This document shows positions 18,181 to 61,476 of a DNA stretch of 64,000 nt, piece by piece. Positions within the stretch are counted from its first letter, which is position 1. Each line of letters opens with the position of its first letter. Position numbers and translations under genes: made by a program. Origin of the DNA: Dudresnaya verticillata (Eukaryota); the NCBI GenBank assembly GCA_977862235.1, contig OZ374560.1, positions 1,302,001 through 1,366,000 of the forward strand. Reading direction: 5' to 3'. Below the pieces are notes generated by a model that did no database searches, was not told where the DNA came from, and saw only the letters and a list, made by a program, of their open reading frames with translations.

Positions 18181-18189
18181 CACTGGTCA

Positions 18190-20185
18190 GTGACATCGGC
18201 CGAGAAAAATTATTCGGCCACTGGGCGCGAGTGTTTGTCTGTGGTGTGGGCCATTACATCATTACGGCCATATGTTGAAGGTACCAAGTTCACAGTCCGT
18301 ACGGACCATGATGCCCTCCGTTGGTTGATGTCGCTCACTGATTCGTCTGGCCGTCTTACAAGATGGAGATTACGTCTGGCCGAGTTCGACTTTGTGATTG
18401 AGTATAAACCGGGCCGTAAGAACCAAGTACCCGATGCCTTGTCCCGCTTGGTGGACCCGCAAGAGCGCGGAGATGCACGGCCAATAGATGATACTGTACC
18501 TGTATTGGATGGTACCCCCTCTATTCTCACGACCACGCGGGCCCGGAGAAATCGAGAAACTAATATGGCCGACAGGAGGGAAAGAGACGATGGAGTCGAC
18601 GCATGGGAAGAGGAACATTTGATGGCCGATTATACGGACTATGGACGAGCGGAAGTCTTCAGTCGTGCACAAATGGAAGGGAAGACAGCAGAGACTCTTC
18701 CAACACCAATAACACAGACTGAAATAATAGAAGGCCAGAAAAACGATGACTTCTGCCAGACCATTCTCGCCACGCGAGCTGGCCTGGGACGACCCAAGAA
18801 ACCTCTCTTCTTCGAAGGGGACGATGGGGTCCTCTGCAGACGTTGTCCAACAGATGGCCAGAAACAAATAGTGCTTCCAGCCTCGCTACATGGCCGCATT
18901 CTTCGGTTGTGTCACCATACCGTTCCGGCAGGTCACCCTGGCCAGAATCGAATGTATCAGACTCTTCGACGGACATACTATTGGCCGCACATGGCCGTTG
19001 ATTGCTTAGCAACAGTGCGAAACTGTGGCCATTGCGCGAAGAACTGGATCCGTCGTCTCCGACATACATCGAATTTACAGCTGTTCCCGGCCAGTCAACC
19101 ATTAGAGAGTGTGGCCATGGATCTTCTCGGGCCGCTCCCCAGGACTAAGAAGGGGTTCGAGCACATATTAGTCATTACATGCCGCTTCTCGAAGCTGACT
19201 CAGGTGGTGCCGTTGACAAAGATAACCGCCTATAATGTGGGCACGGCGTTCTGCGTTCACTGGATTTTCAAGTATGGCGCACCAAAGACAGTTCTTACCG
19301 ATAACGGAGGGCAGTTTGCGGCCAAGTTCTTCCAGGCAGTCTGCCGGCAATTACAGGTGGCCAACATCTTCACGACAACATATCATCCACAAACAAATGG
19401 CCAGGTGGAAAGGTACAATCGAACACTGGCCGCGATGCTTAGGAGCTACGTGAATGAACATCAGACTGACTGGGATGAGTACGCTGCGGCATTGACGTAT
19501 GCTTATAATTGCCATATACATCGCTCCACTGGAACCACGCCGTTTGACTTGGTTCTCAGTCGGCCGCCGAGCCCATTCTCACTTGAGGCTACGTTAAACC
19601 GGCCAAAGCCAACAGGGACTGTGAAAGAAGCGTTCTTGCGCCGATTATCAGAGGCCGTGGATAAAGCTTCGGCCAGTTTAACTCGCACACAAGCGCGCTA
19701 CAAGAAGGACTTCGACCGCTCGGTTAGAACGGGGAATAAGATGCTGGCCGCTGGGGGGTTTGTCTTTCTGGACAACCCAGAAAAGCAGCCAAAGAAACTA
19801 GAGCACCACGCCCAGGGGCCATAAAAAATTATAAGCAATGATGGCCGTACGTTCGTCATCGACAGAGCTGGCCAACTAGAGCGTGTTAACTCGGACCGAG
19901 TAGTAGCCGCGCCCAGGCCACAGGGGCAACCGATGGCTACGGAGACATTGGCCAGTGCCGCATTGGGAACCCTCCCTGAAGGAGTTGCTGCGTCGGCCGA
20001 GGAATATGTCATTGACACTCACGGATATGCGCGAGGATTCGACTGGCCAGCGGTGGTTTCAGGTCAAGTGGTATGGGTATAATGGCCGAACATGGGAACC
20101 CGAGGCTCTTCTGCCAGCCACGTTGGTGTCCCGCTTCTTCGCGCGCATGAAGCGCCGAGCTACGCCGGGCCAAAACAGTTCGTAA
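18190..20185 (+). pseudogene. E1 pol 3' half: RNase H, integrase, chromodomain
   Basis: AEKNYS..RECL, TDHDAL.W, RLTRWRLRL, HHCC zinc finger (H..H..YYWP..C..C), MDLLGP, TDNGGQF and HPQTNGQVERYN. The GPY motif is hit by a TAA at 19822. The chromodomain FQVKWYGYNGRTWEPE follows a frameshift. Confidence 0.93.
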
Positions 20186-20985
20186 GGTCAACTTCGACAT
20201 GGCCAGGGAAGTCAAGCGAGAGGAGTCAGAGTCTGGCCAAAAACTTGTGAAGACGGAGATGCGGGGTGGTTGTGGACGGAGGAGGGAGATGCTGGGTGAC
20301 AAAATACCCCGGCTGGTACCTCGCCACCAAAAACACGACGGCGGTGTTTAGGGTTAACCCAGAATAATGTAAGCTGGCCAATCATGTGTTAGAAAGTCAC
20401 GACCAGCAAATCTCCTGGTGTACGGCGAAATTCAGTGGGTGTAAATGGACGGTCGAAACTACCTCATCTTTTGCTGTCTTTTCCAGGTAACTCTAATTCC
20501 TACGCATCGTGCTTTCGAGCGGGGGTTTGCGCAGAGTGAGAGAACAGGGGAAGCGACGATAACCCCTACCGACAACAAGAAGGAAATTGGCCAGAGAAGA
20601 AGATATGGCCAAATGAAGTGCTTGAAGTCGATGAAAAAGACAATAGCTGGCCATTGCTCTTCCTTCGGCGCCTTGAAGAAGGTAGCCCCACGCCAAGGCC
20701 ACTTCACCACTCGCACTGGCCATTTTTGTGCTTTGACTTAACCACTAACGCCCTTAACCCCGTTTTTCCAGCTGTGCTAATGAGCATTGGCCAGAAGCAA
20801 GACCCATTTGACTAGTATCTGGCCACGATAACACACAACATTTTTGAAGGTAACCAGTGCACTTTAACTCAAGACTGGCCGGACAGACTTAACCCCCAAA
20901 GACAAGGGGGATGTCCCGCCTTAGAAGCACTAACTTGGCCACCAACTTTTGATAACGCAAACGCAAGACACAGGAAATCACAAGA

Positions 20986-23900
20986 CTAACAACAACTCAT
21001 TGGCCAGCATAAGAGCACAAGACGAGCTGGCCAACTACTAATCCAACACTTTAACAACCAACGACCATAAGGACTTGGTGAGCGAGGAGAACCCGGAGCG
21101 CAGGGCTCTCTGCTCCTTGACTGCGAAGGCGCACGAGGCGCTGTCGCGGGAGCTCGTGGGGCTGTTGCAGGAACGGTTGGCGGCGTCACAAAAGGCGAAG
21201 TGGCCGGCAGAGATAAGCTACCAGGGACATGGCCAGGCTGAGCAACATTGGCCACAGGAGTCGGCGGGGCCGACACAGTCGGACGAGTTGCCTCTGGTTG
21301 ATAATCGGCCGGACGAGACGGCGCGCGCGGATGGCCAGAGATATCTCCAGCATGAGATGGCGTGGGGGTTGTGGCCGGTGCCACTGAAACCCCGGGATAT
21401 TGCGGCATAGTCGGCGCAGGCGTAGGCAAGGAAGAAAGAGGAAACTGAGGCATCTGGCCAAAGACAGGGGGCGCATAAGCTGCGCGCAAACTGGCCAGCT
21501 GATGAAATCCACGATTGCGCTCCATGTCAAGTAAGGCCTGTTGATTATGCGTCTCGTCGCACCAGCGATCGCGCTGCTTCTTCCACTCAAGACCCTGCTC
21601 GTTAGATCTGGCCAGCGACTCCTTTGTGGCCTGCAACTCGGCCTCGACCTGATCTTTCTGTCTTCTAACATTGGCCAGCCGCTCTTCGCCCCGTCTGATC
21701 ACCTCTTCCACTTCATCAACATGACGCCGAAGGCGGTTGAGTTCGTCGGTCTGGCCACGCTTTGTGTCGCTGAGGCGACCAAGGCTCTGATTCAGCTGCC
21801 GCAAAATATTGGCCAAAGACATTTGGTTAACATGGCCGCGCACAGAAAATTCGGCCACCACATGCGGATGAGGATGCAAGAGGTTGGCCCGCACAATGGA
21901 AGCGTCGTTGGCCACTTCAACTCCAAAGCTACTTCCATGCCGAAAAGTCACTTGCCTGTTCCAGTCGAAACCGCAATACTTCTCATCATGGCCAGCCCTG
22001 CGTTGAAACAAATGGTCCCGGTGCCGCACTGTGTCGGCCAACTTCTCATACAACGACACAACATCTGGCCAATACACATGATTGAACTGATGATGATGCT
22101 CCTGGCTGACGGGGAGGTAGGTAAGATCTTTCACCACTTCAACTCGTCGAGCAATGGCCTGAGAAGACATCCACCACATTCTCTTCGACGCTTGCGCTTC
22201 GTAGCGGAAGAAGATGCTGGCCATTATGTGCAACTCTATGACAGCGGTTTCTTGGAAGCACTCAACCCAAGTGGGGTCGAGCGCATGACGACGATACTGG
22301 CCAACAAAATAATAGGCCAGAGGGCTAAGTAGACAAGCCTCTCCCCTCGATGGCCACTCCTTCCAAACAAAAGCGGGAACGCTAGGGAAGTATTCGACCG
22401 AGGGCCAAAACCCTTCCTGGCCACGAGTGTTGCCGTGGTAGACATAGCAACCACCCGTGCGATGCGCCAACCAATCTCCCGGCGCTATGATGCGACGAAG
22501 GTCTGTACTGGCCATTTTCGCGTTTCGCACGGTCGTCTAATCCCAGCGCTCAAGCATCCACGAGTGAGGGAAGGCGTAATACCATGTGGAAGTATGAGGG
22601 TACACATTAGAATTACCCTTGAACATCAGCCAAGCCCCGTGAACGAACATCACGTCCTGCGCGCACAACAAGAAGGCACGGTCGCACTCAATCTCCAGAG
22701 GGATCCAATAGAGATGGCCATTATCATGCGACTCGCGATATTGATGCCACGCCTCGTTGAGAGGGCGATGGCTTTCCCGCACGCGAATCATGTCCAGCTT
22801 ATCACTATTGGCCACCAACTCCGTATAAGTAATATCCACTCGAGGACGCGTTGGCCAGATGGAAGTCTCGGGCAATCGCTCATCCAAAACTAACTCGGGG
22901 CCATCATGATCTTCTAGGCCCGGTGGGAGGTCGGAACGGAAAGGTACAGCAGCACGAGTGTGCGAAGCTGGTTCACAGTCCGGATGCGTTGGAGCAGAGG
23001 GGCCAGCACTTGAACTTGGGATATCCTGGCCAGCTTTGGAAATATCCAAAGTTTCTTCGCGTGGTATAACTTCCTTCACGCGAGGATCTTCACTCTGGCC
23101 AGATGACTTAGGCGGCGCGCCTGCAGATGGCGTGGAAGGAGACTGGCCAGTTTTGAGCTCATCGGCGTCGGGGAGCAAAGCCACAAATCGACGACGATCG
23201 CCGTCTTACATGAGATTGGCCGGTGGAATAGGGGTAGAAGCACCGACGTCAACAACTTCGTTGCGAGATACCTGGCCAACTTCCTTCGGGGGCAGCCGCT
23301 GCTTCTTCGAAGGAGGCCCCTGAACAGCGGGCTTGCCGATGTTCAACTTGGCCAACTCACGCGCACGACTAGCGGCCGTCGGCATGAAAGGTGAAGGCGC
23401 CGAGCGCAGTCGTGGCGTGGATTTCCTCGAAGCACTCGGAGTGGCCGAACGTGATGACTTGCGTGGCACGGGAATATTGGCCAAAGCTTCTGCGGCCTTC
23501 TGCCCCAACTTATCTCCTTTCTTCTGCTCTGGCCCAACCTTCTCAACTCTTCCAGGTAACTCCTGCTTGCTGGCCAGTGGTTCTTCTCGAGCGGGCACAA
23601 ATACCATGGCCGAATCGGAAACCTCGGGCCGAGCCGCATCTACTTCTTCGGCTGCCGCCGCGGTAGCTTGCGTAAACAATGGACGGGAGATGACAATGAC
23701 GGCCTTCTCAATAGCGCTGACCAACGGTGGCGGAGTGGGATTAATGGCCGTTTGCACTGAAGTGCTTGCGGCCGGCATCAACTTCTTCGCCTCGAGGCGC
23801 TTCACTTCGGCCTGCACCAACCCTTTCTCAGGGGCTTCTGCTACCTTCTGGCCAGTTGCTCTCGCCTCTTTCGCTGACGGGCCAACAACAGAAGATGCAG

Positions 23901-24449
23901 TCGACTTACCCTTTCCAAGTTGGCCTGCTGCCGCCGCCGCCTCCTCTGACGAAGATGATGCGACGATGGTTACGCTGCGCACTACCTTGGCCTTCTGCAC
24001 ATCAGCAAGTTTCTTCTTTAGGTCGGCCAGTTGTTGCTCTTCAGCTTCGCGCCTCTTCTGACTGGCCGCTATCTCCTGCATCAGTTTGTCAGTGCCAACG
24101 TCGGGCGTAGCGGGCACCATGGGCGGAGTAGCGGAGGCAGCAACACTCTTCTTCTGGCCAGTCTTGATGGGCTTTTCCGCTGCGGTAGTGGCTGCAGCAA
24201 CTGGCGGATCGGAGGGCTTGCCACTTGGGGTTTGGGTGCTGGGGCGGAAGATGCCCTGGGCGCCTTCATCGCACGCGGCCTTGAACTCTGGCCAGTCTTC
24301 TTCGCGGTAGCCTTCACTCTGGCCACAGCGACTTCTTCGTCGCTCGACGGCGGTGTAGAAGATGAGCTGGAAGAAACGGTCGGCCGTACAGTCTTCTTCT
24401 TGGCCGATGCGGTGCGACGCGGGCGCGCTTTCGCAGGACCACCCGCCAT
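20986..24449 (-). pseudogene. E1 antisense extra ORF (~1150 codons), unknown function
   Basis: ORFs 23206-24753, 22537-23184 and 20986-22530 share one frame and are separated by single stops (TAA 23206-23208, TAG 22537-22539). The likely start is MAGGPAKARP (ATG 24449) in another frame. It has an NLS-like PPSKKQRL, a globular domain, a coiled coil and a Pro-rich tail. Confidence 0.7.
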
Positions 24450-24685
24450 CGAGAGTGAACTGGCCAGACGCGCACGTGGAGACCGAAGCAAGGGGCGGCG
24501 CGCGCACGTTGGAAGGAAGTGAGGACGTGCGCGCGATGTGTTGGCAAGTGTTGGTAAGAGGAAGTGTGGTGTGGCAAGATGGTGATGGCCGCATGCAGGG
24601 AGAGGGGTAGCGGCGCGGATCACGCGTGCTGATATGGCCAGATGAAACCCTCGCGGCCAGGAGTCCGCGCTTGCGAAGGGGGCTC

Positions 24686-25449
24686 TGTGGTGCAACGGCA
24701 AGGGGGCCGCCGAAAGGAAGCAACTCGACGGGCCAACTGTACGATCGGCCCAACCAAACGAAGACACTTGGCCAATGAAGTTGAGTCGTCGGCGCGCGGA
24801 CGGCGGTGAGCGCTCGCCAGTATGAAACGTGGCCACCGACTGTACACGTGGCTCACACGTGGCCACCTACGACACCGAAGCGCACCACGTTGCCCGTTGT
24901 ACACGTATGATCCGGATCGTGGCTAGATGCAAATGGAAATTGGATTTGGCCGCAAGGTGAATCAAAGGGAAGACAGTGGAAAAATCAAGGGAAAATCTAA
25001 CTCATTTGGCCAACCACTAACGAACAAGTACTTGGTTTAGTCTGGTAAGGGTACAGCATTGGCCCGACGCCGGAACAAAAGTAGATATTTATGGCCGACC
25101 TGGGTAACCTCGGCCACTAACTGTAGAATAGCTCTAGATTAGCTCAGATGGCCGATTTTGGGCCTACTTAGCTGGCCACACACTACGGCTAAGCCGAAAA
25201 AGGTACGAAGCCGTCCCGCCAGAGGTTGGGAGTAAAGTTAATAACTGAACCCCCAACTTGGCCATTTTCTGTCCTCATCACAGATTCTGGCCACGACTTC
25301 GTCTGCGCGCTCCCGCTCTACCACGCTTGCTACCGGCGTGCAGGTCCCTTCTACGTTCTGGCCAGTTTTGGTCAAATCCGACAGGTCTTTGTGGTCTTCT
25401 TGGGGTCTCGTTTGGCTGCCGTACGCGGTGGTGCTCTAGAGATACTACA
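24686..25449 (+). repeat. E1 3' LTR (~764 bp)
   Basis: Starts TGTGG after the PPT and ends TACTACA, matching the termini of the other LTRs in the window. It contains CACGTG boxes. The partner LTR is not seen. Confidence 0.75.
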
Positions 25450-26172
25450 CGGAGTACCGACCGGCATTGAGTAGGAAACCTCGAAGTTCTTGTGGTCATC
25501 AGGTACTTGCGGATACTTCCCGTTATACCACTCCGGCTTGATAGCCGTCACCTCTTGGCAATGGCAAGGGATGAGACACCCTGTCTTGTGGCGTTGCTTC
25601 CGCTCGAAGCGGGAATGCCCTAACGGCATAGCCGTCTGGGGGTTATCCAGAGCGTATTTTAAGTTGGATGACTCATCCCACCGCACCACGCGGGCCATTG
25701 TATACGGGAAGTTATCCCTCCCCTTCCGAATGAGTGGACGCTCATGCATAACGAGTCGAAGGTCCCACTCGCCACCCTGGTGAATCTCATACAAAAGGGC
25801 GGCCTGCGAAGTTAACTTCTGCGTCAGCGCATTGCTGCACGCAATCTCATGCCGGAAGCGCACATAGGCAAGATCCCATTGCAGGGGGTCTGCGTCGCCA
25901 TCAAGGCGCGGGAGGAACCGGTTGGTACCGGTCAAGATGCCAACGCGCGTGCGCATGAGACGATTCCAAACACGGCTTTGAGCCATCCCCCCGATGCGGC
26001 GAACCTCCTCGCGACTAGCTCCCGCCCGCATCTTCAGATGTGTGAGGTCGGTACGCAGGAGCCAGTCGCGGCTGTGGGAGATCGCTATCGGCACGCCAGC
26101 CGCATCCACCTCATGTCCCAAGAAATTGACACTAGAGCCTGCGGCTCCATACGCCAAGTGTGGCGGCGCCAT
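25450..26172 (-). pseudogene. E3 antisense ORF, homolog of the E2 antisense ORF, truncated by E1 insertion
   Basis: Collinear with 29203-30390 (LGHEVD.AGVPI, SRDWL.RTDL.HLK, WDLAYVRFRHE, RPLIRKGRDN.PYT, RWDES.NLKYALDN, QRHKT.CLIPCHCQEV). Similarity stops at MPVGTP, exactly at the E1 LTR end. Confidence 0.85.
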
Positions 26173-26855
26173 CCCGATATAGTATGCGAGAATGCCAACG
26201 GCTTAGAAGTCGTTTCCGAATAGAGTCTTCTAAGGTTCGGAGACCTTTCTCTTAGTTCGCGTCGGCTCCAGAACTGACCCTGAGGGGTAGTGAGCGCGAC
26301 CTGATTACTCCTACGGCGCGGAAGCCGTTCTTCTGCCTGAACGTCGGCTCCAGAGCCAAGTCCAGCGACTGGCGAGCACGACCTGAGAAAACGGCTGTCA
26401 GCCGGGAAGAGCGGGGCGCGCACGGCGGAGGTCGTAGGGCTCAACGCAGGGCGCCGGTGGGCAACGGGAAAACCGCAGATGATGAAATCGCTCAAGCGGG
26501 ACGGATGCAGCGAGCAGAAGCCGGGCGGTTGGGTGAAGCGCTACGGCTGTTGGTGGGTGTGGGCACCGAAAGGGAAAAGATGGCTGCAAGCCAGCGTTGA
26601 AATATTCGTGCGCCCGTCTGGCGTTTCGCGCAATCGATACCGGTCGAGACGACGCCGACGGCTCAAGCCGTGCACACGGTGACCTGGAGCCTCATCGAGA
26701 CGGGGCGCTGGGAGGCGTTTGCAAAACGTTCTCGCTGGGCCAATGAACGGACCACCGGATCTCAATCTCAATCTCAAACGGCTATAGCCTTTGGAAACAG
26801 CATCGCTGTACAGCTCCTTACTGAGCGCGGTCGCTCAGTTTTAAGAAGGGGGCCG

Positions 26856-27816
26856 TGTGGTATAACGAGCGCTGGGGCGCTGTAAGGAGCCACGTGTACA
26901 CGCGACGCCTGTAAGGCGTGGGATACAGGAGTGAGATGGCTGCTCGCCATTGGACAATTAACTACGTGAGCACTAGGCGCGCTGAGTGGTGGATACGCGC
27001 CATGATGGCACGTCTATTTTGGGCGTGGCGCCTTACAATGTGTGGCAGTATGGACGCTGTCAGCAGAAGGGCTTACAGAAGCGCACTTCTTTTCGCGGGA
27101 CAGACTGTCCCTTAATCAGGACAGCTGTCCTTTCATCGCTGTACACGTGTATATACGTGTATACACGTGGACTTACAGCTATACACGTGGCGTACACATG
27201 GCAGGGTAATGACGCCAGTTGGACACCTCGTATTGGCAGATTTATGACGCGCCGCTGCGCTCCTACTCACGGACGAGGAGCACCTCTGCGCTCAGGGTAT
27301 CGACAGTGCAGCCGGGACCTCGGCTTGCGCACCGGCGCATCCGCCACCAAGTCCCCTAACTGGAATGTATTCCCACTTTTGACTTGTACTGACTGTACTA
27401 ACCTTTGTATCTATAATCATAGACTAACTTAGACCCCCTTTTGGGCTGATAGACTTTTCGGCTGTCAAGCCTACTTATAGGCGCCGGAATAGCCGGCGCC
27501 CTCAGAATAAACACTCAGCGGAGTTGTTCGGGAAGTTTCCACCTTTTGGTCGCTCGGACGCTCCGCGCCTGCAGGGGTCGCCCAGTACAGGCCCGGAAAT
27601 CGTACGACAAGTACTCTACGAAAAACCGGGTCGCAACCTCTATACGTTCCTTCAGTCGGTCGCGCCGAGTCTTTACCGTGCTTCCGCACCCCCCCTTTCG
27701 GGTCATCAGGGCCCGCCTTTTTCCAAGCCTCTACCCAACCTCCCTCGAGCTACCACCAATTAGCGTGTGATATCGGACAGCTGTCTCTTCTTGTTCTTTG
27801 CTGTTTCTGGCCGGTG
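26856..27816 (+). repeat. E3 3' LTR (~974 bp including 41134-41146), split by E2
   Basis: TG start after the PPT, 5' end similar to the E2 LTR (TGTGG.ATAA.GAGCGC...GCGCTGTAAG), and a CA end at 41146. Confidence 0.85.
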
Positions 27817-28440
27817 TGTAGTAGAATGGCCCTTGGCCAGGTAGTCGGCGATAAAACGGCGCGACAGCTGTCCTGGGGACACACACTCACGGTGGGCGGT
27901 AGCTCAAAGGAAAAGGGAAAAAGGGGGTGGTAGAGACTTGTAGTGGGTGTAATACCCAGAAACAAAGAAAAGGGAAGGCGAACCCTACAGCGTAGAGCAA
28001 TCGTCGTACACGATAGGGCTTGTAGACGCCCAAGGCAAGGGAAACACGGTGGCACCGTAGGAAGACCAGAAAATGGGTACAGCCCAAAGTACACACCGCT
28101 GGCGGTTTAGTGCTGGGCCCCTGCTACTCAGGGGCCCATTAAATACGGCGGGAAGCCGGAAATGCTACCCACTCTAAGCTAGAGTTATAATACTGACAGT
28201 TACCTACTACTGTACACTAAGTGGTGGATTACAATCCAATGATAGGAATGAGTGGTAGTACCACTACGAGGTACAGGCGCGCTGCTGTCTGGCGCGCAAT
28301 GCCAAAAATATGGGTGACCAGGATTAATCAACCAATGATAATCAGCCATCTCAGCCATCGTGCCCTCGGGCGCCTCACGCCTTACAGGCGTCATCTGTAC
28401 ACGTGTGTGCTTACAGCGCTCGGGCGCTCATTATTCCACA
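27817..28440 (-). repeat. E2 3' LTR
   Basis: Direct repeat of 40505-41128 with 5 substitutions seen by eye. Confidence 0.97.
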
Positions 28441-28458
28441 CGGCCCCCTTCTTAAAAC
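28441..28458 (-). promoter_or_regulatory. E2 polypurine tract
   Basis: The minus strand reads GTTTTAAGAAGGGGGCCG immediately before the LTR TG. Confidence 0.85.
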
Positions 28459-28967
28459 TGAGCGACCCCGCTCAGTACAGCAATGCTGTTTCCAACGGTT
28501 CCGACCGTTGAGATCTGAAATCTCGTCGAAAAGATTGGCCCAGCCAAGCGCGGTATTTCTGGCTTTCTAGAAGCATCCACGAACGGTCGTCGGCGCCTGC
28601 GCCAGATCAGCCCGGCGACAGCCGTCGTCGGTGGCTCGCCTTTGGCGCCACGACTGGTATCGACAACGCGACACGGCAGACGGGGCGTCTATTTCAAACT
28701 CGGCGCAGAGCCGACTGTGCCCCTTTCGCACTCTCGGTCACCCACCGACTCGACCGCAACCTCCACACTTCCGATACCCTGCCCTCTTCCGCCATCACTC
28801 TTCCGCCCTTCTTCACCCTAGACTCTTCGCGACGACTCGCGTCGTGTTCGGGCGCGTCTTTCTGCCGTGCTGCGCAGCGCGCGGGAGCGTTTCTCCTTTG
28901 TCTCGTGGCAAAAACGTTTGCGTCGAAGACTGGCCTCGTGTCGCCCATAAGCATCGCTCGAGCGATT

Positions 28968-29128
28968 CAGGCCGCGCTCGCCTTTCTTAGGATCGGCTTT
29001 GGAGCCGACGCATTTCAAGGAAGGCCTCCGCGCCTTAGAAGTATTTTCAGGTCGCGCTCGCCTTTCTGACGATCGGCTTTGGAGCCGACGGTCATACCGA
29101 AGACAAGGCCTCCGTGCCTTAGAAGAAT
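28968..29128. repeat. 80-bp tandem duplication with hairpins, upstream of the antisense ORF
   Basis: Two copies of CAGG(C/T)CGCGCTCGCCTTTCT...GATCGGCTTTGGAGCCGACG...AAGGCCTCCG(C/T)GCCTTAGAAG. A homologous pair is at 26226-26386. Confidence 0.85.
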
Positions 29129-29202
29129 AACTGGGGCGCTCCCATTTTGCAAAGCCTTCAACTCGAGACGTCTCGCGACGTGGGGTTCGCATCGTCACAG
29201 CG

Positions 29203-30390
29203 ATGACCAACTTGGGTCTCGTCTATGGAGAGGCTGGCTCTAGCGCCAGCGTTCTTGGCCATGAAGTCGACTCGGCGGGTGTGCCGATTGTCATTAAGCG
29301 CAGTCGCGACTGGTTGGTACGCACCGACTTGGCGCACCTCAAAACCCGAGCTGGGGCTGGTCGTGAGGACATCCAACGACGCGGGAGTCGTGGTGCTCAG
29401 AGTCGTATGTGGAACAGCGTCAGCCGTGCTCGAGTGGACATGTTGACCGGGACCAACCGACTCGTTCCCGGTCTGCTGGGTGAGGCGTCTTGCTACTTTT
29501 GGGACCTCGCATACGTGCGATTCAGGCATGAGGTGTTCTTCACGAACTGTATCGCCGGGAAGCTGAACTACCAGCTGGGGGCGATGCGGGAAATCCACTC
29601 GAGTGGAAAGTGGGACCTGCGCATGGTTAGCCATGCCCGCCCCCTTATTCGCAAGGGGCGGGATAACTATCCATATACGCTAGCTCGCATCGTCCGGTGG
29701 GACGAGTCCACCAACCTCAAGTATGCGCTTGACAACTCGCAGACGGCCAAGCCGTTGGCTTATTCTCGCTTTGAGCGACGTCAACGCCACAAGACTGCAT
29801 GCCTCATCCCTTGTCATTGCCAAGAGGTGGTTGCCATCAAATCAGAGTATTACAGGGCTAAGTACCCTCAAGTGCCCGACGACCACGCGTCGTATGAGGT
29901 CTCATATTCAATGCCAGTGGGTACCCCCACCATCGTGGCTTACTTTGGCCTGAACATGATGGCGCGAGCCATGGATGAGAGCGTACTCTGGACCCTTTTT
30001 CGTCACGAGTGGATCGTCTTGGTCGTGCAGACTCTCGTCTATGAGGCCCGTCATGGGATGCTGTATTTCATCAACCAGCCCCTTCGCGCTGCCATCAAGG
30101 AGATGGGTATCGACAATCTGTCGGCGGACGCCGATGACGCACAGGACTTGAAGGCCCTTTTGGTCTTCATAGACCGCATTCGGTGGAGCCGAATCTCCAA
30201 ACGGAATCGTCATCTCCCGGAGAACACCGGTCATCTCACTCCTGTATATGACCGAGGACATTGGGTGGACTTTGACCTAGAAGATTGGCATCCGGTGTTG
30301 CCGGACTTCTTGATTCAGCCTGAGCCGACAGAGGAGAGACCCCTGGTCTTGGATGAGGGAACCCGCATCACCGGTATGACTCACGGGTAG
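29203..30390 (+). CDS. E2 antisense extra ORF, conserved domain of unknown function (395 aa)
   Basis: Open ORF antisense to pol, conserved at protein level with the E3 homolog despite many synonymous-looking differences. Confidence 0.8.
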   Translation: MTNLGLVYGEAGSSASVLGHEVDSAGVPIVIKRSRDWLVRTDLAHLKTRAGAGREDIQRRGSRGAQSRMWNSVSRARVDMLTGTNRLVPGLLGEASCYFWDLAYVRFRHEVFFTNCIAGKLNYQLGAMREIHSSGKWDLRMVSHARPLIRKGRDNYPYTLARIVRWDESTNLKYALDNSQTAKPLAYSRFERRQRHKTACLIPCHCQEVVAIKSEYYRAKYPQVPDDHASYEVSYSMPVGTPTIVAYFGLNMMARAMDESVLWTLFRHEWIVLVVQTLVYEARHGMLYFINQPLRAAIKEMGIDNLSADADDAQDLKALLVFIDRIRWSRISKRNRHLPENTGHLTPVYDRGHWVDFDLEDWHPVLPDFLIQPEPTEERPLVLDEGTRITGMTHG

Positions 30391-31482
30391 GTGAGCGCCA
30401 GTTGGCAGGACCCCGGTTCGGAGACTCCAGGTGACGTCCCGTCATTCGACGACACTGTCGATGGTCAGTCTCAAGGTTCGTACGCGACGGCATCAACTGG
30501 CCATGGTAAGGCCAACCACATCTTCCGTGACGTTTTCAACAAACGGGGTTTGGCTATCCACCTCGCGGTGCATTGGGAACTACGGAATCTCACCGTTAAC
30601 AGCCTCGCCGACTGGGTCGAGGAGGTGATGGTGGACTATGAGTCCAATTGGATGAGGACTCCGGGTCCTGTGGAGCGTTCGGAGAAACTTCGTACCCATT
30701 TGTCAAGGCTCCCACCCTTGAAGGGATACCCCGATGATGTTGACATCATCAAACCGCGTTTGGGCGTTGGCCATTCTGCTACGCCGCGAGTGAAGAGGGA
30801 ATCGGCCAAGGTCGATAGTTTGGATCCGCGCGCAATGACAGGTGGTGACACCTCGGTGGTTCCTCGCGAAGAGTCAGCTGTGGCGCCTTCGGCCAGTCAT
30901 GGAGCGGCCATTTCCCACTCGGCTCCCAAGCCGATGAATACAGCGGGCGCCTCATCATCGACGATGGCGCCGGCTGCTCCTACGATGCACATGTCTGGCT
31001 TCGTCGCTACTGGCGAGTTTTTCAACACGATCTCTCCCAAAGATGATTCTCGGGGCCAGCCCGATGCTAGTCGTTCTAAGGGCGACTCCTTGGTGGTTAA
31101 ACCAAGTGGCACCGGCCAAGAGAGCGAGAAGCCTGCGGATGTCGAGACTGGGCCTTCGCCCACTGTTGGCGAGTCCAACGTAACACCTCAAGACGACGTT
31201 GTCGTGAAGACTGAGCTCGTCGTGAAGGAAGAAGACGAAGTAGCCCCTCTCGTACAGGGCATCCAGACCGATGGCGTTGATGCCATGGAAGTGGACCAGC
31301 CAACGGCCAGTCGCCGTGCGTTAAACGAGTTAGAGGGGAGTCGGCGCGGTCGTGGTCTGCGTCGCGGAGGGGAAAGCCGTCACGTCGTGCGCGAGGTGCG
31401 ACGTGTCGTCGTATCTCACTCGGCACCCAAGCCGAATCCTCCGTTGGGTGAGGATGAGGTTATTGACCTGTTATCGGATTAG
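30391..31482 (+). CDS. In-frame continuation of the E2 antisense ORF after a single TAG; low complexity, ends in a SIM-like motif
   Basis: Starts in frame immediately after the TAG at 30388-30390, stays open for 363 codons and ends GEDEVIDLLSD. Confidence 0.6.
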   Translation: MSASWQDPGSETPGDVPSFDDTVDGQSQGSYATASTGHGKANHIFRDVFNKRGLAIHLAVHWELRNLTVNSLADWVEEVMVDYESNWMRTPGPVERSEKLRTHLSRLPPLKGYPDDVDIIKPRLGVGHSATPRVKRESAKVDSLDPRAMTGGDTSVVPREESAVAPSASHGAAISHSAPKPMNTAGASSSTMAPAAPTMHMSGFVATGEFFNTISPKDDSRGQPDASRSKGDSLVVKPSGTGQESEKPADVETGPSPTVGESNVTPQDDVVVKTELVVKEEDEVAPLVQGIQTDGVDAMEVDQPTASRRALNELEGSRRGRGLRRGGESRHVVREVRRVVVSHSAPKPNPPLGEDEVIDLLSD

Positions 31483-32684
31483 CCGAAATTGTCCTTCTTC
31501 GAGTAATGGCTCGTGAGCCACGTAATTCGCCACACTTGGGCAAGAGCGGCTTATCCGCTGAAGTAAAGTGACTTGTTGTTGTTTGTGTCACTTCGGTACG
31601 CCGATTTCCATAAGTAGAGCCAACCACTGAGGGGGCCCTCATTAACACGCCTCTGCGACTAGGCTCCGAAGGAGCCCCCGTCGACGTTCGTCGAGTGACT
31701 TCCTTTAACTCAAGGCCGTCGCGCCCTTTTCTTTTCTAGGTCCTTCACTCGGAGAGGGAGTCGCGTGCACATGCGCGGTAGACTCCTCAAGGGAGTTGGT
31801 GGCGAGAGCTGAGGGTGCCGGGGCAGTGCCCCGTGGATTGTGGTGCCAAACGATTATGATTCGTTAGTCAATCCGCCTCCCTTGGCGCTTCGCCAAATCA
31901 GTTATTGCCAGCAATGATAGAGGCGACTCTACAGTAGACAAAAACATACTGTAGAGCTACGTTCTTGTTGGCGCCAACCGATGTAGGGACTCTTCAGCCA
32001 TAGCTGATTTGCGGGTCAATTCGCCTCTATGGCGTCTGGAGCAACACACCGTCCTTTCCCTCAAGAAGGTCGTTAACATCCCCTAGTCGTCGTCGACGAG
32101 GGGGCTTATGCCACATCTGCGGCCGTCAGGTCACCGTTATGGTGAAGCGACTCCTCCATGGTAGTAAGCCTCACCCGCGACGGCCTCGTAATGGCGACAA
32201 AGTTATGGTAACTCTGCTAGGGCAGACGAGTGTAGTTTCGTGGATTCCCGTCACGATTATTGCCGTGGTGGAGGTGTCCAACATGAGGGCAGATCCTCAC
32301 TCCTGGATTTCAATCCATAAGTGGCTGGAGCCTATCCCCATAGCTTAATTACCATATTGGCATAAGGCTTCCTTCCTACCGGTGGTAGTATTTCTTTCTA
32401 TACATGTGAGCGTTGGCTCCAGTCTTATTATTACAGGGTTCTACCCATGTCCAGGTTTCCCTTGATCTCATCTATTCCAGGTCTTGAACCTTCTGTACAT
32501 CTATCCACATCTATCCATGTCTTCTATCCATATCTTGAATCTCCATTCATCTATCCATATCTTCTAACCAAACCAAGGTATCAACCTTTTCTTCACCAGC
32601 ATACGTGTTCCACGTTTCATATAATGACAGCTTCCACAAGCAACCCAACCCTCGCTGCAGGAGATTGACTCCTCCTTTTCCATG

Positions 32685-35600
32685 CTAAGCCGACAGTCTC
32701 TTTCTGTAGAGCTGTAGGGCTGTGTTTTCCCGAGACTCCACGTCTTCGTCTATCGACGAAGCCACTGCGTCGGCAGTTACACCTGGAAGGGGGATCTTCC
32801 TGGAACGGTGATACCGTTTGACCAAATTGTCAGGGAGGTGATCCCTTGGTTCCCAGGTGTCTTGCGACGCTGGGCATTGGAACCACCTGATACGATACTT
32901 TTGGGTATCGGCGTCATAGTCGACGATTTTGTCATACACGAACTCACGTGGGGGTGCTTTCTTATAGCGTGAAAACTTACGGCGAGGCGCCGTCACATCA
33001 TCCTCAATCGCCGGCATTGCCGTGGGAGCGGCAGGCGGATTTGACTTCTGTAAGAGTTGTGGGGTGTTACCGCCTTGAGACAGGGAAACAGATACCTCTG
33101 TATGGGGGTTGTTAGGAGAAACCGGGCCCACGGTGCTATCGATATTGTCAGTGTTTCCAATTAATGGAGAGGGGACAGTCGTCGCATTTGCGGGTCCCAC
33201 GGCCTCTCTTGAGCGTTCCTCATCTTGCGCTCTTCGCGCCTCTTCAGTGGAAGGTTCATCGGTGGGCTCTGGCCCAGAAGGTGGTTGCAGATGGTTTCCA
33301 GCTTCTGGTGCTTCACCAACTATCGCGGAGTCCTGTCCTAGAGCTCCGAGTTCTTCGTCTGGCGAGGGCGCCAATGTCACGCGGTCCAACGAGATTGACT
33401 CTCGCTCCCCCTTGACTTCAAGCACGACGGTGTGCGTTCCTCTCTCGAGGACCTTATAAGGCCCCAGAGCCTTTGGGAAAAGCTTTCCTTCTCGCGCTAC
33501 GCCTCTAGCGTCTTTCATCTTAGTTTCTCTTTCAAGAAAGACCCATTGTCCAGGGCGTATCTTCTGATTGCTCAGACGCATGCGGTTGTTGAAGTTAGCT
33601 TCGTAGCGACGTTGCGCTAATTTTAGCCGAGGCAACGCTGTATCCATCAGCTTCTCAAGTCTAGCGGTCAGCCGCTTCTTGACATTAGTCGCAGATACGT
33701 TAGCTACGTCGACCGTTTCAGCTTTCTCCATGAGGATGGAAGTAGGTGGATTGGATAGAACCAAATCAACGGGCGCGAATCCCGTAGCACGATGAACGGT
33801 CGTATTATACGCATACGTTAGTGCCGACGTGAACTCGTCCCAATCTTTTTGATCATCTGCGGTGAAGTGTCTCAACCCTACTAGAAGGGTGCGGTTGAAC
33901 CTTTCGGTCTGAGCATTGGTCTGCGGATGATATGTAGAGGTGAACATATTCCGAATACGGAGGATGTCGCAGACGGCAATAAAGAACTTCGAAGCAAACT
34001 GCGATCCATTGTCGGACAAGACGTAACGGGGTGGCCCGTAGATATACACCCAGTGTTCGCAGAACGCCCTCGCTACCGTATAAGCCGTTACCGTCTTCAA
34101 CGGGACTACCCGTGTAAGTTTCGAGAAACGATCGGTGATGACGAGAAGATACTCGTTCCCCTTGCTTGATCGCGGAAGCGGGCCCAAGATATCGATTCCT
34201 AGGAATTCGAGCGGCATAGTAGCCGGAAATAACTTCATGTGCGAAGTATGTTTACTCAACTGGACTCGTTCCATCGCGCACTTGACACAGTTACGCACTG
34301 TCGAGTAAACGGCAAGGGCCATGTCTGGCCAATACACTTGCCTTCTCAAGTTGTGGTACATCCGTGTGCCACCAGGATGGCCAGCCATATCCGGGTAGTG
34401 TGCAAGATGTAGGACTCTCTCCTGAAGAACTCTAGGTATGACTACCTGTAAAGCTCGGTCAATGTAAGACCTTCGGACTAGGAGTCCGCGTTCGTCTTCC
34501 AGATAACATCCCGGTTTTCCCGCTTCGATGGCTAATCGGATACCCTTACAGAATTCGTCTGTTCGTTGGGCGCGAAGAAGTTCCTCTATTGTGAGGAGTG
34601 AAAGACTCTTCTCGTCCATTTCCTTTTCAGCCACGTTAGCTATCAATTGCTCGTCCTCGAGACCCGACTCGAACGAATTGTCTTCGGGTTCCATCTCCCA
34701 TTCTTCCAGAGGTCGCGACCTGGTGTTGGCTCGCGATGTTTCCTTCGCCGAAGGGTCAGGGGGATCTTCCCCATCGCTATCAGCGATTATGAAGCAGGGG
34801 ATCTCGAGATCCGGTTCCCACTTAGTAAACCCATAGGTAGGTAAACGTGAGACAGCGTCAGCAATCTGATTTTTCTTTCCCTTACGGTATTGGACCGTGA
34901 AGTCATGCTCTAAGAGACGCAAGCGCCATCGTGCTAGACGTCCGGACGCGTCCGTCATGCTCATCATCCATTTGAGAGCCTGATGGTCGGTGTAGAGGTC
35001 GAAATGAGACCTTTCCAAATATGGTCTGAGCATTTGGGTAGCCCAGACTACAGCGAGGCATTCCTTCTCGCCGACGGAGTAATTCCGTTCTGCTGGTGTT
35101 AGGCCCCGACTCCAAAAGCCAATAGGGTGTCGAGTCCCGTCGGGTTCCATTTGCATTAGGGCGCACCCTATTTGGTAGTCACACGCGTCGGTATCGACCG
35201 AGAGGGGTCTGTCTTCCTTAGGAAGTCGGAGTATTGGCGGCGCGATGAGGGCTTTCTTCAGTAAAGCGAAAGCTTCGCGTTGCCGTTCATCGAATGGAGG
35301 TAATTCGAAATCAACGTCCTTCTGTAGGAGCCTATTGAGCGGAGACGCTACGCGTGCAAAGTTCGGTACGAAACGTCTATAGACGTTGCATAGCCCAATG
35401 AACGACCGTAGTTGCGTTTGCGTCGTAGGTTCCTTGAAGCCTTCGATGGCTTGTGTATTCTTGGTAGCTACCTCCAGGAGACCAGGTCGGATCACGTGTC
35501 TGAGGTAATCCACGCTTTTTGTGAAGAAATTACACTTCTTCAACTTGAGCGACACACCCGCTTCCTTCAACACAGAGAGGATCTCTTGAACGTGACCTAA

Positions 35601-37364
35601 GTGTTCGGTGACACTCTTAGAGAATGACTATGATGTCGTCCAAGTAGACGAGACAAGACTTCCATCGGAATCCCGATAATAAAATGTCAACTGTTCGTTG
35701 AAACGTTGCTGGTGCGTTGCACAGACCGAATGGCATTCGGCAGAACTGAAAGCAACCTGCATGACAGGTAAAAGCTGTCTTTGGCTTATCCTCCGCCGCG
35801 ACTGGTATCTGCCAGTACCCTGAATTGCAATCAAGGGTTGTAAAATATTGGGCGTCGCCCAACGAGTCTAAGCACTCGTCCATTCGCGGGAGAGGGTAAG
35901 AATCCTTGATGGTTATCGCGTCAAGCTTTCTGTAATCAACGCAGAAACGGAGTGATCCGTCCGGCTTCTTCACTAGTACCACTGGACTTGCGAACTCAGA
36001 GCGCGCTGGCTCTATGACCCCTTCCTTCAACATCTTGTCGACTTCATCTTGCTCCGCTTGTCGCGCCTTCGGTCCAGACCGATATGGTTGTGCAAATACG
36101 GGTTTTGCCCCGTCAGTGAGATCGATTCGATGCTCCGTGACCTTTATGGTCCCGAGCTTCCCGTTCCACATATCTGCGAAGGGTCGCAACATCTTGCGCA
36201 CGAGACGTCTTTCAGACGTAGAGAGGTGTTCCAGGGCTAAGTCATCGACTGTTAGCTTCTCAGCGGCGGTTGTAACGCCCGGTTTGGGATTGGTCGCGCC
36301 AAGAGCAGCAGCCAGCCCTGCCCCCCTACATCGAAGGATGTCTCCGTTTGAGGATTCGTGTCCTTTTGTTGTGAGACTGTATCCTCGGAGACGTCGTCGA
36401 TGGAAACCGAATATACAGGCGTGGCCGTGGGATCTGGAACTGCGCGACCAATCACTTGGTGTTTGTTCAACCGCTGTGTGCGGGAAGAAAAGTTGGCAAC
36501 CTTGACCCGGAAGAGAACATTCTCTTGGAGTTTGACGATGCCATTCGTGATGATCACTTGTTGACGGTCGTATAGACGTTGGAACGAATCTAGGAAGTGC
36601 GTTCCTTTGGCCGTGCACGTGACGGCGACCCAGGTTTCTGAGCCTGGTAGTAAGTTAGTTGTTTGGGCAACTCTCACGAGTCGCGAGTTAGGTAGGGGAG
36701 GGACCTCCATGGGCTCGCCAGAGCTCGTGGCTCTCGGGATACCGCACCGACGCCGTAGAATCGGTTGTACCGAGCCGTCCCGTAGCGCGATGGTTTGTTT
36801 GCGTACACGCAACGCCTCGACATGGGTATCGATAAAGGTACAGCCTAAGATCATATCAACGGCTAATGCCTTGACTACGACGAACGGTTTTCGTACCGTG
36901 TAGGAGCCAATTCTGACGGCCAGGGAGATCATTCCCATAGTTGTTAAGCGGTGACTTGACGCGGACGTCAAATTCACGATCGATCGGGTCGAAGATATCT
37001 TCTTCCGTTCTTCCAAAGAGAGCACGTCGGCTCGGATGAGGTTTGGGCCCGCCACAGTGTCCAAGACTGAGAGCACTTGAGTAAGTTTCTCAACAGAAGT
37101 CCCCACGGACGCGACAACTTTATAGTTGTATCTCGAAAGAGAGCAAACTGGGTCCTTAACATACTCATGATACTTATACCCGGGAGGTAGGCCCACAGGG
37201 CGTTCTAAAATCTTCTTTGGAAGAGAAGGCGGGGTTTCCCGCGACACCGATCGGTTGGTAGAGGAGAAGCTTAAGAAGTCACATTCCTCTGAACGATCGG
37301 GGGGCTCCGATACGACTGGGGTTGCCCAGTGAACCGAAACCGGTTCCCCCCTAGCTAGTTTTTC
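32685..37364 (-). pseudogene. E2 pol (protease, RT, RNase H, integrase, chromodomain) with two frameshifts
   Basis: LDT(V)AGPN protease, LRFCVDYR, MPFGLCNAPATFQ, YLDD, DTDAC, TDHQAL, HHCC, IDILGP, SDNGSQF, GPY and chromodomain YRIRW...DTWEP. Frameshifts occur near 36322 and 35624. Confidence 0.95.
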
Positions 37365-40065
37365 ACCCTGCTAGCAGGCGACCGCGGAAGCGGTGGAGGC
37401 GGCGGAAGGGTTCGCGACCCTGGTCTTGGCGAGCGTGGCGCCGCCGGTGGGTGTCTGGGAGTGGCAACCGGGTGATTAAGTCCCGCTTGAAATTGGACAT
37501 GTCCGTTCCTGCCTGGGGTTGACCCCAAATTTTGATGCGTGCCTGGCGGCGGCCCACCGGCCCGACCTGACGATGCGTAGTCGCGGTGGTCCCCACGGAT
37601 ATCTCCGTTTGCGAACTCGGGTAGGCGCCTTATGGTGGCTAACCATGTCTTCTGCTCGCGCGACAAGTGATAAAACTGTCGGCGTTTTAGCGCCTCAAAT
37701 GACGGTTCATCCGTGCGAGCCAGATATGGGCAATTCGGTTTCTTGTGGCCCACGCCATAGCACTCGAAACAAATGTCATTGCGTGCATCTTCGACTGTTA
37801 CCCACCCAGGACGCTGAGTCCTTGTTGGTTGCGCCCATCCAGGCAATCGGTGGTTGTAGTTCTGTAGAAATGCTTCCACTTCACCATAGTATGGTTGGTT
37901 ACTGGGTGCCCCAGACCATGAGTCTGATTGGGTTACCGTGGATGGAGGCGCTTCGTTGTCGATGGCAGCTACCACAGCGTCCTCGCTATCCGCGTCAGAG
38001 CTACTGCTCTTTGATGAATCGGAATCCGAGGACATCTGCTTCTTATTCTGGCGAATGAGAAGAGCTCGTCCAGACTTGTGCGTCTTCACCCTGGAGAGGG
38101 TTTTCCGGGGTAGCGTTGAGCTCACCTTCTTGGAGCGTCACCACCCACAAGGGCTCGGTGGGAATCTCCCTGAGCCGTTGCGAGCTCAACGTAGTCTGCT
38201 AGTCGCGCCGTGCGAGGGTCCAGTGATGACGTACTCAAAAGCGGTTTGACCGCAGGTAGTAACCCTCGTATAAAACGTGTAATCAGGTCTTCCTCTGAGT
38301 AAACACCTGCGACCTTTCGCGCTTTGTTCTGCAAACGTCTTGAAAACGTAACCTCCTCCTCATCAGACTCCTGAATCATCGTGTCCATCTCCGAAGAAAT
38401 CTTCTCGATGTAGACGTCCTTTGCGTAAGTCCGCAGGAGGTAATTAATGGCTTCCGGCCACTCATTGAAACCCCCATTGTCGTCACCTGCGGCATCGAAA
38501 TTGGCTTCGAACATGTCCTTAGCGTCTTTTTCCAAGACCTCTGGGATAACCAGAATGGCAGCGCCTTCACTGACTTGGGCTTGATCCAACTGTCGTTTCA
38601 ACGTGGCCAGAAAGCCAATTATGGAAACTGGGTCACTCCCATCAAAGCGGCGACTCCTCATCACGGATTTAACCCGTTTAATCTTCTTGGAAGTGGCTTC
38701 CGTTACTTCCGGTCCTCGATATGAATCGACATTCAACAACCGATAGCGTCGGTACGAAAGAACCTGTACAAAGGCAGGGTTTCGTGGAGTCAACTCCTTG
38801 AGTCCCGTCCGACGTGGGCCTCTCCAAGAGCTCCATGACGGTCGGGAAAGACCTCGCGAGGTGGGTTCATCTTCATCCGAGTGGTTCAGAGCGGGGTAGG
38901 AATTGCTTCGGCGTTGATCTTCAGCCTTGCGGCTGGAGTACCGGTCTTGGCGTGAATCAATCCGGCTGCGGCACACGTTGGGACCGTGCGTCGCCCGGCA
39001 ATCACACCGAGGGTGTTCCGTCCTCTCACGACCAAAGTCGTCATTTCCAGACTCCCCTCCCGAGTCACGTCGCGGAGACGTCTTGCGACGGTCCCTGGTG
39101 CCTCGAGGCACAGGGGAGCGTCGTCGTTCGACTTCAGGGATTAAGTCCCTTTCACGATTAAGTTGCCTCATCTTTGCTTCTAGCAACGCGACCTTCCGTC
39201 TCTCTCCATCGAGATCTTTGCGTAAAAGCTCGATGGCTCGATCTTGTTCGACACACCTTTTGTCGTCCACGTTCCGTTGAACGTTTTGTATAGCCATTAC
39301 GGCCTCTGTCCTTGTTAGGTCTATAACCTTGTTGAGTGCATGTAGTTCCTCGTGGACGGTATCCAATTGGTCCCCGAGGGAATCCACTTGCGCCTGCAGG
39401 GTTTCGACCCTTTCTTCGTCTAATCCTCTGGGAGGACCTGGTTGACCTCGAGGTTCAATCTCTTGTTGACACCTCGCCAGGAGGCGGTCATCACGGCGCG
39501 CGGATGCCTCGTCAATGTACCTCTTGACCTTTAGAAAGGTATCATCGGCTTGGCTTTCCAACAGTGCCACGACGCTCATCGTCAAGGATCTCTCGATGCC
39601 TAATTCGACCATTCGTCCAATCTCACGCTCCGTGAAGCAGCGGATCTCAGACGAATGATACTTCGTTCGCATTGGCAACCCTTCGTCCGAAGTTGCCGGA
39701 GTTTCTTCTTCCTGGGCTCGTCCGCCCATAGCTTGAACACTGGCTAACGCCAGGGACGGCGGCATCATTATACGGCCTGGACCTTCGTTCTCCCCGTTGT
39801 CAGCGGGGGCTTCTCCAACGGTTCGGACCGTATTTTCTCCGTCAGGGACCTGATCCGTACCAGGGCCAGGTGGTTCTTCTTCAGCTGGGACGCCGGTCGT
39901 TTGGGGCGGCGATCTCAGCTCCTCCGTTGCCGGATTGTTTGCAAGAGCGGTTACGACCGCACGGGTGCGGGCGCCTACTGTCCGTACAGAGGCAAGACTG
40001 CCTGTACGACTCGCGCCTCGGCTAGATAAGCCGGGGCGCGTTGTATCGCCATTAGATGTAGGCAT
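37355..40065 (-). pseudogene. E2 gag with a CCHC zinc knuckle; one frameshift at ~38125
   Basis: Capsid-like region (FDGSDP...W.EAINYLLRTY...FIRGL) and CFECYGVGHKKPNC. Two ORFs overlap at 38122-38125. Confidence 0.9.
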
Positions 40066-40503: not shown

Positions 40504-40504
40504 C

Positions 40505-52274: not shown

Positions 52275-52326
<52 letters not shown>

Positions 52327-61441: not shown

Positions 61442-61476
<35 letters not shown>

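Follow-up and report, generated by a model that had tools for sequence, protein, structure and literature searches.

A dense, family-specific palindrome in a red-algal Ty3/gypsy retrotransposon suggests binding sites for an element-encoded protein

Why should a single retrotransposon be packed with one six-base palindrome? The question is raised by a 64,000-nucleotide stretch of the genome of the red alga Dudresnaya verticillata (GenBank assembly GCA_977862235.1, contig OZ374560.1, positions 1,302,001 to 1,366,000; hereafter the window, whose numbering is used unless a locus is named). It contains E1 (18184..25449, + strand), the 3' part of a long terminal repeat (LTR) retrotransposon of the chromodomain-type Ty3/gypsy group. 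The hexamer TGGCCA occurs 78 times in the window, and 62 of these sites lie at 18855-25359 within E1, for which a dinucleotide model predicts 2.7 and block shuffling about 2 (27.6-fold excess); the remaining 56.7 kb holds 16. An earlier sequence-only reading had put about 50 sites in 20200-25400, and 53 are counted there. It had also pointed to many variants of the form YGGCCR, with sites in the pol gene as well. E1 contains 106 YGGCCR sites (62 TGGCCA, 25 TGGCCG, 12 CGGCCA, and 7 CGGCCG) with a mean gap of 68 bp, which together form an unoriented array at 18197..25364. The first site starts at 18197 and the last at 25359, and the nearest sites outside start at 16645 and 27808, so that the enrichment falls off at the element border, as had been described, and is not region-wide. 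Flanking host DNA (25.9 kb) is not enriched (TGGCCA, 7 versus 6; YGGCCR, 23 versus 32). The sites are dispersed, again in line with the earlier description, and Tandem Repeats Finder detects no tandem array in E1.

The sites are found in every part of the element. E1 is truncated at RNase H and retains a pol fragment with the RNase H end and the integrase (18184..19821, +; Pfam RT_RNaseH, Integrase_H2C2, and rve), which ends at a premature stop. It is followed by a chromodomain-like pol remnant in a shifted frame (20039..20170, +), recognized by eye in the translation, at the place where the neighbouring element E2 and many homologues have a Pfam Chromo match. Next come a non-coding spacer (20191..20985), a long antisense open reading frame (ORF; 20986..24449, −), a probable polypurine tract (24675..24682, +) laid out like the tracts before the LTRs of E2 and of a third element, E3, and a probable 3' LTR (24686..25449, +; 764 bp, TG...CA), a single LTR whose start is inferred from its likeness to those of E2 and E3. 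YGGCCR density is 14.9 per kb in pol, 13.8 in the spacer (11 sites, 10 of them TGGCCA), 14.1 in the antisense ORF, and 16.0 in the 5' untranslated region/LTR. Thus, the sites do fall alike in spacer, antisense ORF, and LTR, and their equal density in constrained pol and non-coding DNA is as expected for a target that serves to cover the element.

The E1 copy is decayed, with stops and frameshifts in both genes. Its 5' half is missing; the cut, at about 18184, meets an inverted fragment of another element. E1 is inserted in the antisense ORF of E3, and its 3' end (...ACTACA) coincides with the break in that ORF. RNase H precedes the integrase in E1, and the full order of reverse transcriptase (RT), RNase H, and integrase is present in E2 (Pfam). 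Two LTRs, a polypurine tract, and a target-site duplication are likewise all present in E2, whereas E1 has only the inferred 3' LTR and tract.

Neither codon usage nor CpG decay accounts for the excess. When E1's own codons were shuffled 1000 times, pol gave a mean of 7.8 YGGCCR sites (maximum 14) against 24 observed, and the domain of the antisense ORF gave a mean of 2.4 TGGCCA sites (maximum 7) against 12 observed. The TGGCCA excess in coding DNA is present in all three frames. The excess therefore survives codon- and dinucleotide-preserving nulls, and codon usage is ruled out as its cause. CpG decay, as a form of the methylation-linked substitution bias offered earlier as an alternative, finds no support, as CpG observed/expected is 1.0, with no depletion. 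Coding sequence often uses the site where the protein permits it: TGGCCA is present at 36 of 46 permitted coding positions in E1, compared with 3 of 19 in pol and the antisense ORF of E2, and YGGCCR at 24 of 39 motif-compatible positions in E1 pol. In addition, the E1 integrase itself is shifted towards motif-compatible residues. YGGCCR-compatible peptides amount to 7.2 per 100 residues, versus 4.2 ± 0.8 in the 120 homologues listed, none of which reaches the E1 value (where these homologues name an organism, it is Chondrus crispus). Several sites fall on residues that are rare among homologues, and the motif columns are on average conserved like other columns (0.50 versus 0.51).

Enrichment is graded and symmetric, being ~33-fold for TGGCCA, ~9-fold for TGGCCG and CGGCCA, and 3-fold for CGGCCG. 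TGGCCA is preceded by C in 31 and followed by G in 26 of its 62 occurrences. The raw preference for TGGCCG over CGGCCA (25:12, p = 0.047) vanishes at protein-compatible positions (17/57 versus 10/32), which leaves the sites without strand bias. A depletion of near-miss hexamers is not significant (16 versus 22, p = 0.11). Spacing is more even than random (coefficient of variation (CV) 0.68 versus 0.89, p about 0.001), and only 1 of the 105 gaps is shorter than 18 bp, versus 17 expected, with none of 3000 simulations as low; the 18-bp threshold was picked after the gaps were seen, and the deficit holds at thresholds of 12-40 bp. It also holds when only compatible coding positions are considered (p = 0.018). 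Of the compatible positions that lie 6-17 bp from a site, 2 of 13 carry one, versus 66 of 109 (Fisher p = 0.002). Neither helical nor nucleosomal periodicity of the sites was found in E1. A site that is short, symmetric, and graded, keeps an exclusion distance, is paid for by the protein, and has one density throughout is most simply explained as a binding site that is selected for coverage.

A different signature marks the two neighbours. E2 (27817..41128, −) is young and full-length, with LTRs that differ at 5 positions, a 5-bp target duplication, and an antisense ORF at 29203-31479 (+). A fragment of E3 with adjoining repeat DNA (25450..27816, +) contains a piece of the antisense ORF (25450-26172, −) and an LTR from about 26856. 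E2 has 8 TGGCCA sites in 13.3 kb and E3 has none, so the sequence-only reading was right that both have far fewer sites; it overlooked that both are dense in 5-bp inverted repeats. E2, which is not saturated with YGGCCR, has 269 perfect 5-bp inverted repeats with 3-6-base spacers (52 expected), at 15-31 per kb across gag, pol, the antisense ORF, and the LTRs. Its pol contains 102 (25 under codon shuffles). The perfect repeats are strand-symmetric, one-mismatch forms are barely enriched, and the arms end sharply at 5-6 bp. In E3, perfect 5-bp inverted repeats are 3.2-fold in excess. Perfect 4-6-bp inverted repeats with spacers of 3-6 run element-wide through E2 and E3, five-fold over chance, and also through most related families, including clades G1 and G5 and loci L168/L170, L164, L166, and L023 of the set described below. 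The excess is absent from E1, G2, G3, L007, L025, L167, and two host genes. The spacer between pol and the antisense ORF of E2 also has a short 13-bp tandem array (32510-32570).

Both signatures might be functionless products of a family-specific mutational ratchet, driven by fold-back template switching in reverse transcription or by methyltransferase-directed repair as proposed for HIP1, a dispersed palindrome of cyanobacteria. Template switching yields perfect inverted repeats, and those of E2 and other families are perfect, with no mismatch tolerance and no strand bias. However, the sharp end of the E2 arms does not suit this route, and a fixed hexamer with zero spacer is not producible by fold-back. 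As for repair, Elhai's model of HIP1 lets G-methylC palindromes accumulate to saturation density, and GGCC fits; but no methyltransferase is detected in E1 (no motif; HHalign probability ~0.1%), and a host repair bias should also affect E2, E3, and host genes, which it does not. Moreover, equal density in constrained and free DNA and the 18-bp exclusion are unexpected for a ratchet. We consider this origin unlikely.

The sequence-only reading had raised the prospect that each subfamily has an enriched k-mer of its own. Relatives were taken from two sources: an integrase alignment of 40 sequences gave the best 80 of 582 confirmed loci in a metagenome scan (38-48% identity), and from 35 loci in prokaryote bins the 11 best matching the E1 integrase (46-57%) were analysed. 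The prokaryote-bin loci with algal retrotransposons (L163-L170 and others) are likely contamination. Clades were taken from a quick tree; their members are 73-84% alike where checked and count as one case. None of the relative loci analysed is rich in YGGCCR. Contiguous and gapped k-mer scans, made without two-letter patterns or wildcard palindromes, showed no motifs in the relatives. Symmetric scans did; patterns that stood out in pol against the codon null were then re-examined in the DNA downstream of it (29 loci). Element-wide palindromes are CCNCGNGG in clade G3, CTCN6GAG in L168/L170, and CCNTANGG in clade G5, with whole-locus enrichments of 4.1-fold, 10.0-fold, and 6.8-fold in G5b or 4.0-fold in G5a, respectively. 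CCNCGNGG is at most 1.5-fold enriched in all other groups; CTCN6GAG and CCNTANGG reach about 3-fold in some. Thus, the prospect was borne out for three further families of 16 groups, and many others have sequence-independent inverted repeats instead. No specific motif was confirmed for G2, L007, L025, or L167; GGAGA (G5b) and CTGGC (G2) were enriched in pol and failed downstream.

In L002 and L040, the element is dense with the G3 motif and the flank has few copies. The motif's N positions do not pair, and such free, non-pairing positions fit a DNA-binding dimer on double-stranded DNA rather than RNA pairing. In clade G3 (L002, L050, L001, and L040) the motif occurs ~6 times per kb, CG.CG.GG is also raised, and the second motif position may be C or G. 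CTCN6GAG in L168/L170 often has a WGAA-type centre. In L005, L017, and clade G5, CCNTANGG lies within longer G/C-rich inverted arms, with 4-7-fold enrichment. Two further loci share a similar stretch of ~800 bp (L069 3900-4750 and L071 2240-3000). Judged by eye, its ends are rich in GGATA, in opposite orientations, and it looks like a small non-autonomous DNA element.

Families with differing signatures share a contig-name prefix (L001/L002 of G3, L003, L013, L014, L017, and L019); differing signatures within what would be one assembly point to an element-encoded factor. This bears on another account, in which a host factor or another transposon's enzyme binds or modifies the sites, or in which E1 arrived sideways from a YGGCCR-rich genome. 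Red-algal DNA transposons do carry adenine-methylase/SET and ParB/2OG accessory genes, according to a preprint (bioRxiv 10.1101/2025.02.11.637652), and the collections searched contain nothing closely related to E1, the best integrase identity being 66%; scans of viral contigs gave no close relative either. Yet there is no enrichment in flanking host DNA, the site is not used by neighbouring elements, and families of one assembly use different palindromes. This account appears very improbable.

Could the palindromes instead act in RNA, as self-pairing stickers or packaging hairpins through which genomic RNAs of one family dimerize and are packaged together? Palindromes with a GGCC core serve in retroviral dimerization and packaging (CGGCCG in Mason-Pfizer monkey virus (MPMV), AAUGGCCAUU in feline immunodeficiency virus (FIV)), and related families have dense short repeats able to form hairpins. 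The E1 sites are predicted to be more paired than controls (unpaired 0.20 versus 0.38 and 0.31), and L168, L170, and L036 have slightly more G-U than A-C near-misses. However, structure prediction places none of the 62 TGGCCA sites in an RNA loop, which speaks against kissing loops, and gives E1 RNA no more structure than E2 RNA (z −0.68 versus −1.34). There is no enrichment of wobble-compatible core variants (2 and 2), E2, E3, L003, L005, and L021 do not favour G-U over A-C, the G3 wildcard positions do not pair, and the bias towards TGGCCG is gone once protein constraint is counted. Retroviral signals, furthermore, are one or a few sites rather than a hundred. A role in RNA pairing is therefore decidedly unlikely, and the target appears to be DNA.

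Which protein might bind the sites? The E1 antisense ORF has a frameshift near 24200 and stops at 23206-23208 and 22537-22539. Its product has a basic low-complexity N-terminus, a central domain, a coiled coil, and a Pro/Ser-rich tail. AlphaFold predicts a long, coiled-coil-like helix (21502..21753, −; residues 255-338, predicted local distance difference test score (pLDDT) 82-97 over 261-330) with weak SMC-type matches, which is a possible dimerization part. A conserved antisense-ORF domain is found in 40 of the 80 related loci, as well as in E2, E3, and L168; many of the other contigs end soon after pol. This red-algal family, defined here, is undescribed, and has no match in Pfam, PHROGs, NCBIfam, or PDB. 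The E1 protein has no homologue among 1.84 billion representatives, and neither it nor the E2 protein has one in a word-indexed search, which covered near lengths only. Searches with the low-confidence model gave nothing at E ≤ 0.001 in Foldseek and a best Z of 4.3 in VIA-align. ESM Atlas gave one weak lead (NDC10_II, 0.76, low recognition) and none for L005, and was not used as evidence.

The E1 antisense ORF matches that of L003 pairwise better than any of 600 shuffles, whichever of four scoring schemes is applied, and there is a second weak match on the same diagonal. Matches to L067 and L005 are weaker, and that to L027 is not significant. Because the E1 ORF fails the family profile but matches L003, it is only a probable remote member of the family. 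It shares with L168, by eye, the layout of domain, coiled-coil-like part, and P/S tail; L168 has an intact 1007-residue stop-to-stop antisense ORF with the family domain and a long coil (7213-10233, −). Several known domains were looked for. A VANC-type domain (DUF1985/plant mobile domain) gave no match in Pfam or in PDB sequences, with fold searches made on the low-confidence model. TRP28 (PF04195) has no match in the pieces of the E1 ORF or in 37 family members, although the position of the ORF fits. The antisense frame has no methyltransferase motif, and HHalign gives ~0.1% against a profile of 28 amino-methyltransferase sequences; the C5 type was checked by Pfam, NCBIfam, and motif scan only. 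An SPP(Y/F) block, considered as motif IV of an amino-methyltransferase, was rejected by the motif and HHalign tests.

The reader of the sites might also be another protein of the element. Integrase, the chromodomain tail, Gag, or RT could recognize selected, element-specific sites on cDNA or on RNA-DNA hybrids in the particle, and so sort or protect its own genome. All the evidence for selection and family specificity fits this equally well, and the inverted-repeat excess is present in L164 and L166, in which no antisense ORF is seen. Those two contigs, however, end 0.4-1.2 kb past pol, so the antisense ORF may lie beyond their ends. The sites that integrases are known to read are LTR ends rather than internal ones. 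Moreover, the E1 integrase is an ordinary member of its group (45-66% identity), whereas the antisense ORF is the strongly diverged gene. We regard another element protein as a rather unlikely reader.

We therefore favour, tentatively and as an account that falls a little short of probable, the view that the sites were selected for binding by the antisense-ORF product of the family itself, in a manner resembling the VANDAL/VANC system of Arabidopsis. Point changes under selection would build YGGCCR sites across the whole element, to be bound as double-stranded DNA by a protein with two-fold symmetry. This protein would most likely be the product of the element's antisense ORF, and by occupying sites along the element it would keep host silencing away locally. 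That the sites arose by selection and not by mutational bias, that a protein binds them, and that it does so on DNA and not on RNA are inferences. Least supported are the identification of the binder with the antisense-ORF protein and the anti-silencing effect, which we propose because of the VANC analogy and because no other gene varies by family; anti-silencing is also borrowed from reports of transposon-associated methylation and H3K27me3 in red algae (PMC8566409). The sequence-only reading had proposed the same target and an anti-silencing or self-recognition role, and is partly supported, the link to the ORF being circumstantial.

Several observations weigh against this account. The sequence-independent perfect inverted repeats of other families are unexplained by a binder of a fixed site, and most families that carry the ORF lack a sequence-specific palindrome, which is found in only 3 of 16 relative groups (G3, L168/L170, and G5, each counted once). 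Two of these motifs are hairpin-like: the inner pair of the L168/L170 motif is complementary in 32 of 50 sites (12.8 expected), and the G5 motif sits in base-paired arms. Spacing in G3 is not even overall (CV 0.91-1.19), and the 18-bp gap in E1 could reflect avoidance of self-pairing neighbours. The metagenome assembly may hold more than one alga. Neither a fold nor a family was identified for the antisense protein (AlphaFold models at pLDDT 44-46, no PDB match). The E1 antisense ORF, read with X at stops, does not score above shuffles against the family profile (HMM, HHalign), and its match to that of L168 is not significant, with 238 of 500 shuffles scoring as high. In addition, VANC sites lie in non-coding tandem repeats and not in exons (PMC5735166), whereas the E1 sites are equally dense in coding DNA.

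A broader and distinctly doubtful version would include the inverted repeats. A red-algal LTR lineage would recode its whole sequence, protein genes included, into a family-specific symmetric barcode, read by a fast-evolving antisense-ORF protein that keeps its own family active. At one end of its range the barcode would be structure only (in E2, a perfect 4-5-bp inverted repeat roughly once per 50 bases) and at the other sequence only (CCNCGNGG, TGGCCA), with CTCN-N4-NGAG and CCNTANGG as mixed forms in between. For each family, a predicted target site goes with an intact candidate protein (that of L168, for example), which makes binding assays feasible. If the binding account is false, whole elements and their proteins are still being recoded into dense palindromes by a force that has no explanation.

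The rest of the window holds other features. Head to head with E1 lies another Ty3/gypsy fragment (16065-18209, −) with an integrase end and a chromodomain-like piece, in which neither signature is clear. An inverted LTR-like fragment, 76% like the E2 LTR, is located at 41213-41514. A 1369-residue frame (49853-53962, +) with poly-Q and poly-A stretches and a hAT dimerization domain (E 5e-6) is possibly a domesticated transposase, and a gene at 59710-62424 (−) has weak LRR matches and an F-box-like stretch read by eye.

How does E1 compare with known systems? Retroviral dimer-initiation palindromes (MPMV CGGCCG, FIV AAUGGCCAUU; PMC13736810, PMC2987497) share the GGCC-core hexamers with E1 and belong to a related element class, but they number only one or a few, are placed near the 5' end, and lie mostly in loops. 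E1 has 106 sites, and none of its 62 TGGCCA is predicted in a loop. HIP1 is 15- to 300-fold enriched inside and between genes (PMC4390886, PMC5861425), is replaced by alternative palindromes in other lineages, and is subject to the same debate of selection versus ratchet. It differs in being genome-wide at ~1 per kb and tied to a methyltransferase, whereas the E1 sites are element-limited at ~15 per kb and no methyltransferase was found. Accessory genes of red-algal Plavaka elements are proposed to bind inverted repeats in their own element (bioRxiv 10.1101/2025.02.11.637652). These are DNA transposons with recognizable ParB, 2OG, methylase, and SET domains and local tandem arrays, neither element-wide nor LTR. 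The same preprint calls VANDAL the only known self-binding, self-modifying transposon and red-seaweed chromatin unexplored.

In plant Retand/Tat Ty3/gypsy elements, too, a long ORF runs antisense between pol and the 3' LTR; it often has SMC-like coils, and DNA binding is predicted for it (Vicient 2025, PMC11963269). Placement and coils are thus alike, and the role of such accessory ORFs in plant LTR elements, Retand included, is described there as unknown. Retand elements, however, unlike the chromovirus-type E1, are flowering-plant non-chromoviruses with family-specific tandem arrays in the 3' region, and E1 has no TRP28 match; an element-wide motif is not mentioned in the text available. The literature search gave no description of an LTR retrotransposon with an element-wide palindrome; it did not address inverted-repeat saturation and had most subscription journals outside its scope.

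The closest parallel in working is VANDAL/VANC, in which Arabidopsis Mutator-like elements carry family-specific, non-palindromic motifs of 8-9 bases in tandem repeats of non-coding DNA, with none in the exon probes tested, and VANC acts on CG locally at bound sites (Hosaka et al. 2017, PMC5735166). VANC21 is predicted to dimerize through a coiled coil (PMC13547354), and a preprint on plant mobile domains raises transposon-encoded anti-Polycomb proteins as a hypothesis only (10.1101/2024.09.27.615353). Both systems have a motif that accumulates in the element and varies by family, and an accessory gene as the candidate binder. They differ in that VANDAL is a DNA transposon and E1 an LTR retrotransposon with a dispersed 6-bp palindrome in coding sequence. 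With its retrotransposon backbone, its non-tandem sites, and no VANC likeness found, E1 is not a member of the VANDAL/VANC system, and the family-specific palindromes in related elements are new here. If the antisense-ORF protein does bind these sites and hold off silencing, sequence-specific anti-silencing would extend to retrotransposons, and its family would be a new class of DNA-binding proteins with changeable specificity. The barcode version, if true, would be the first self-recognition or anti-silencing system in a retrotransposon, independent of VANC.

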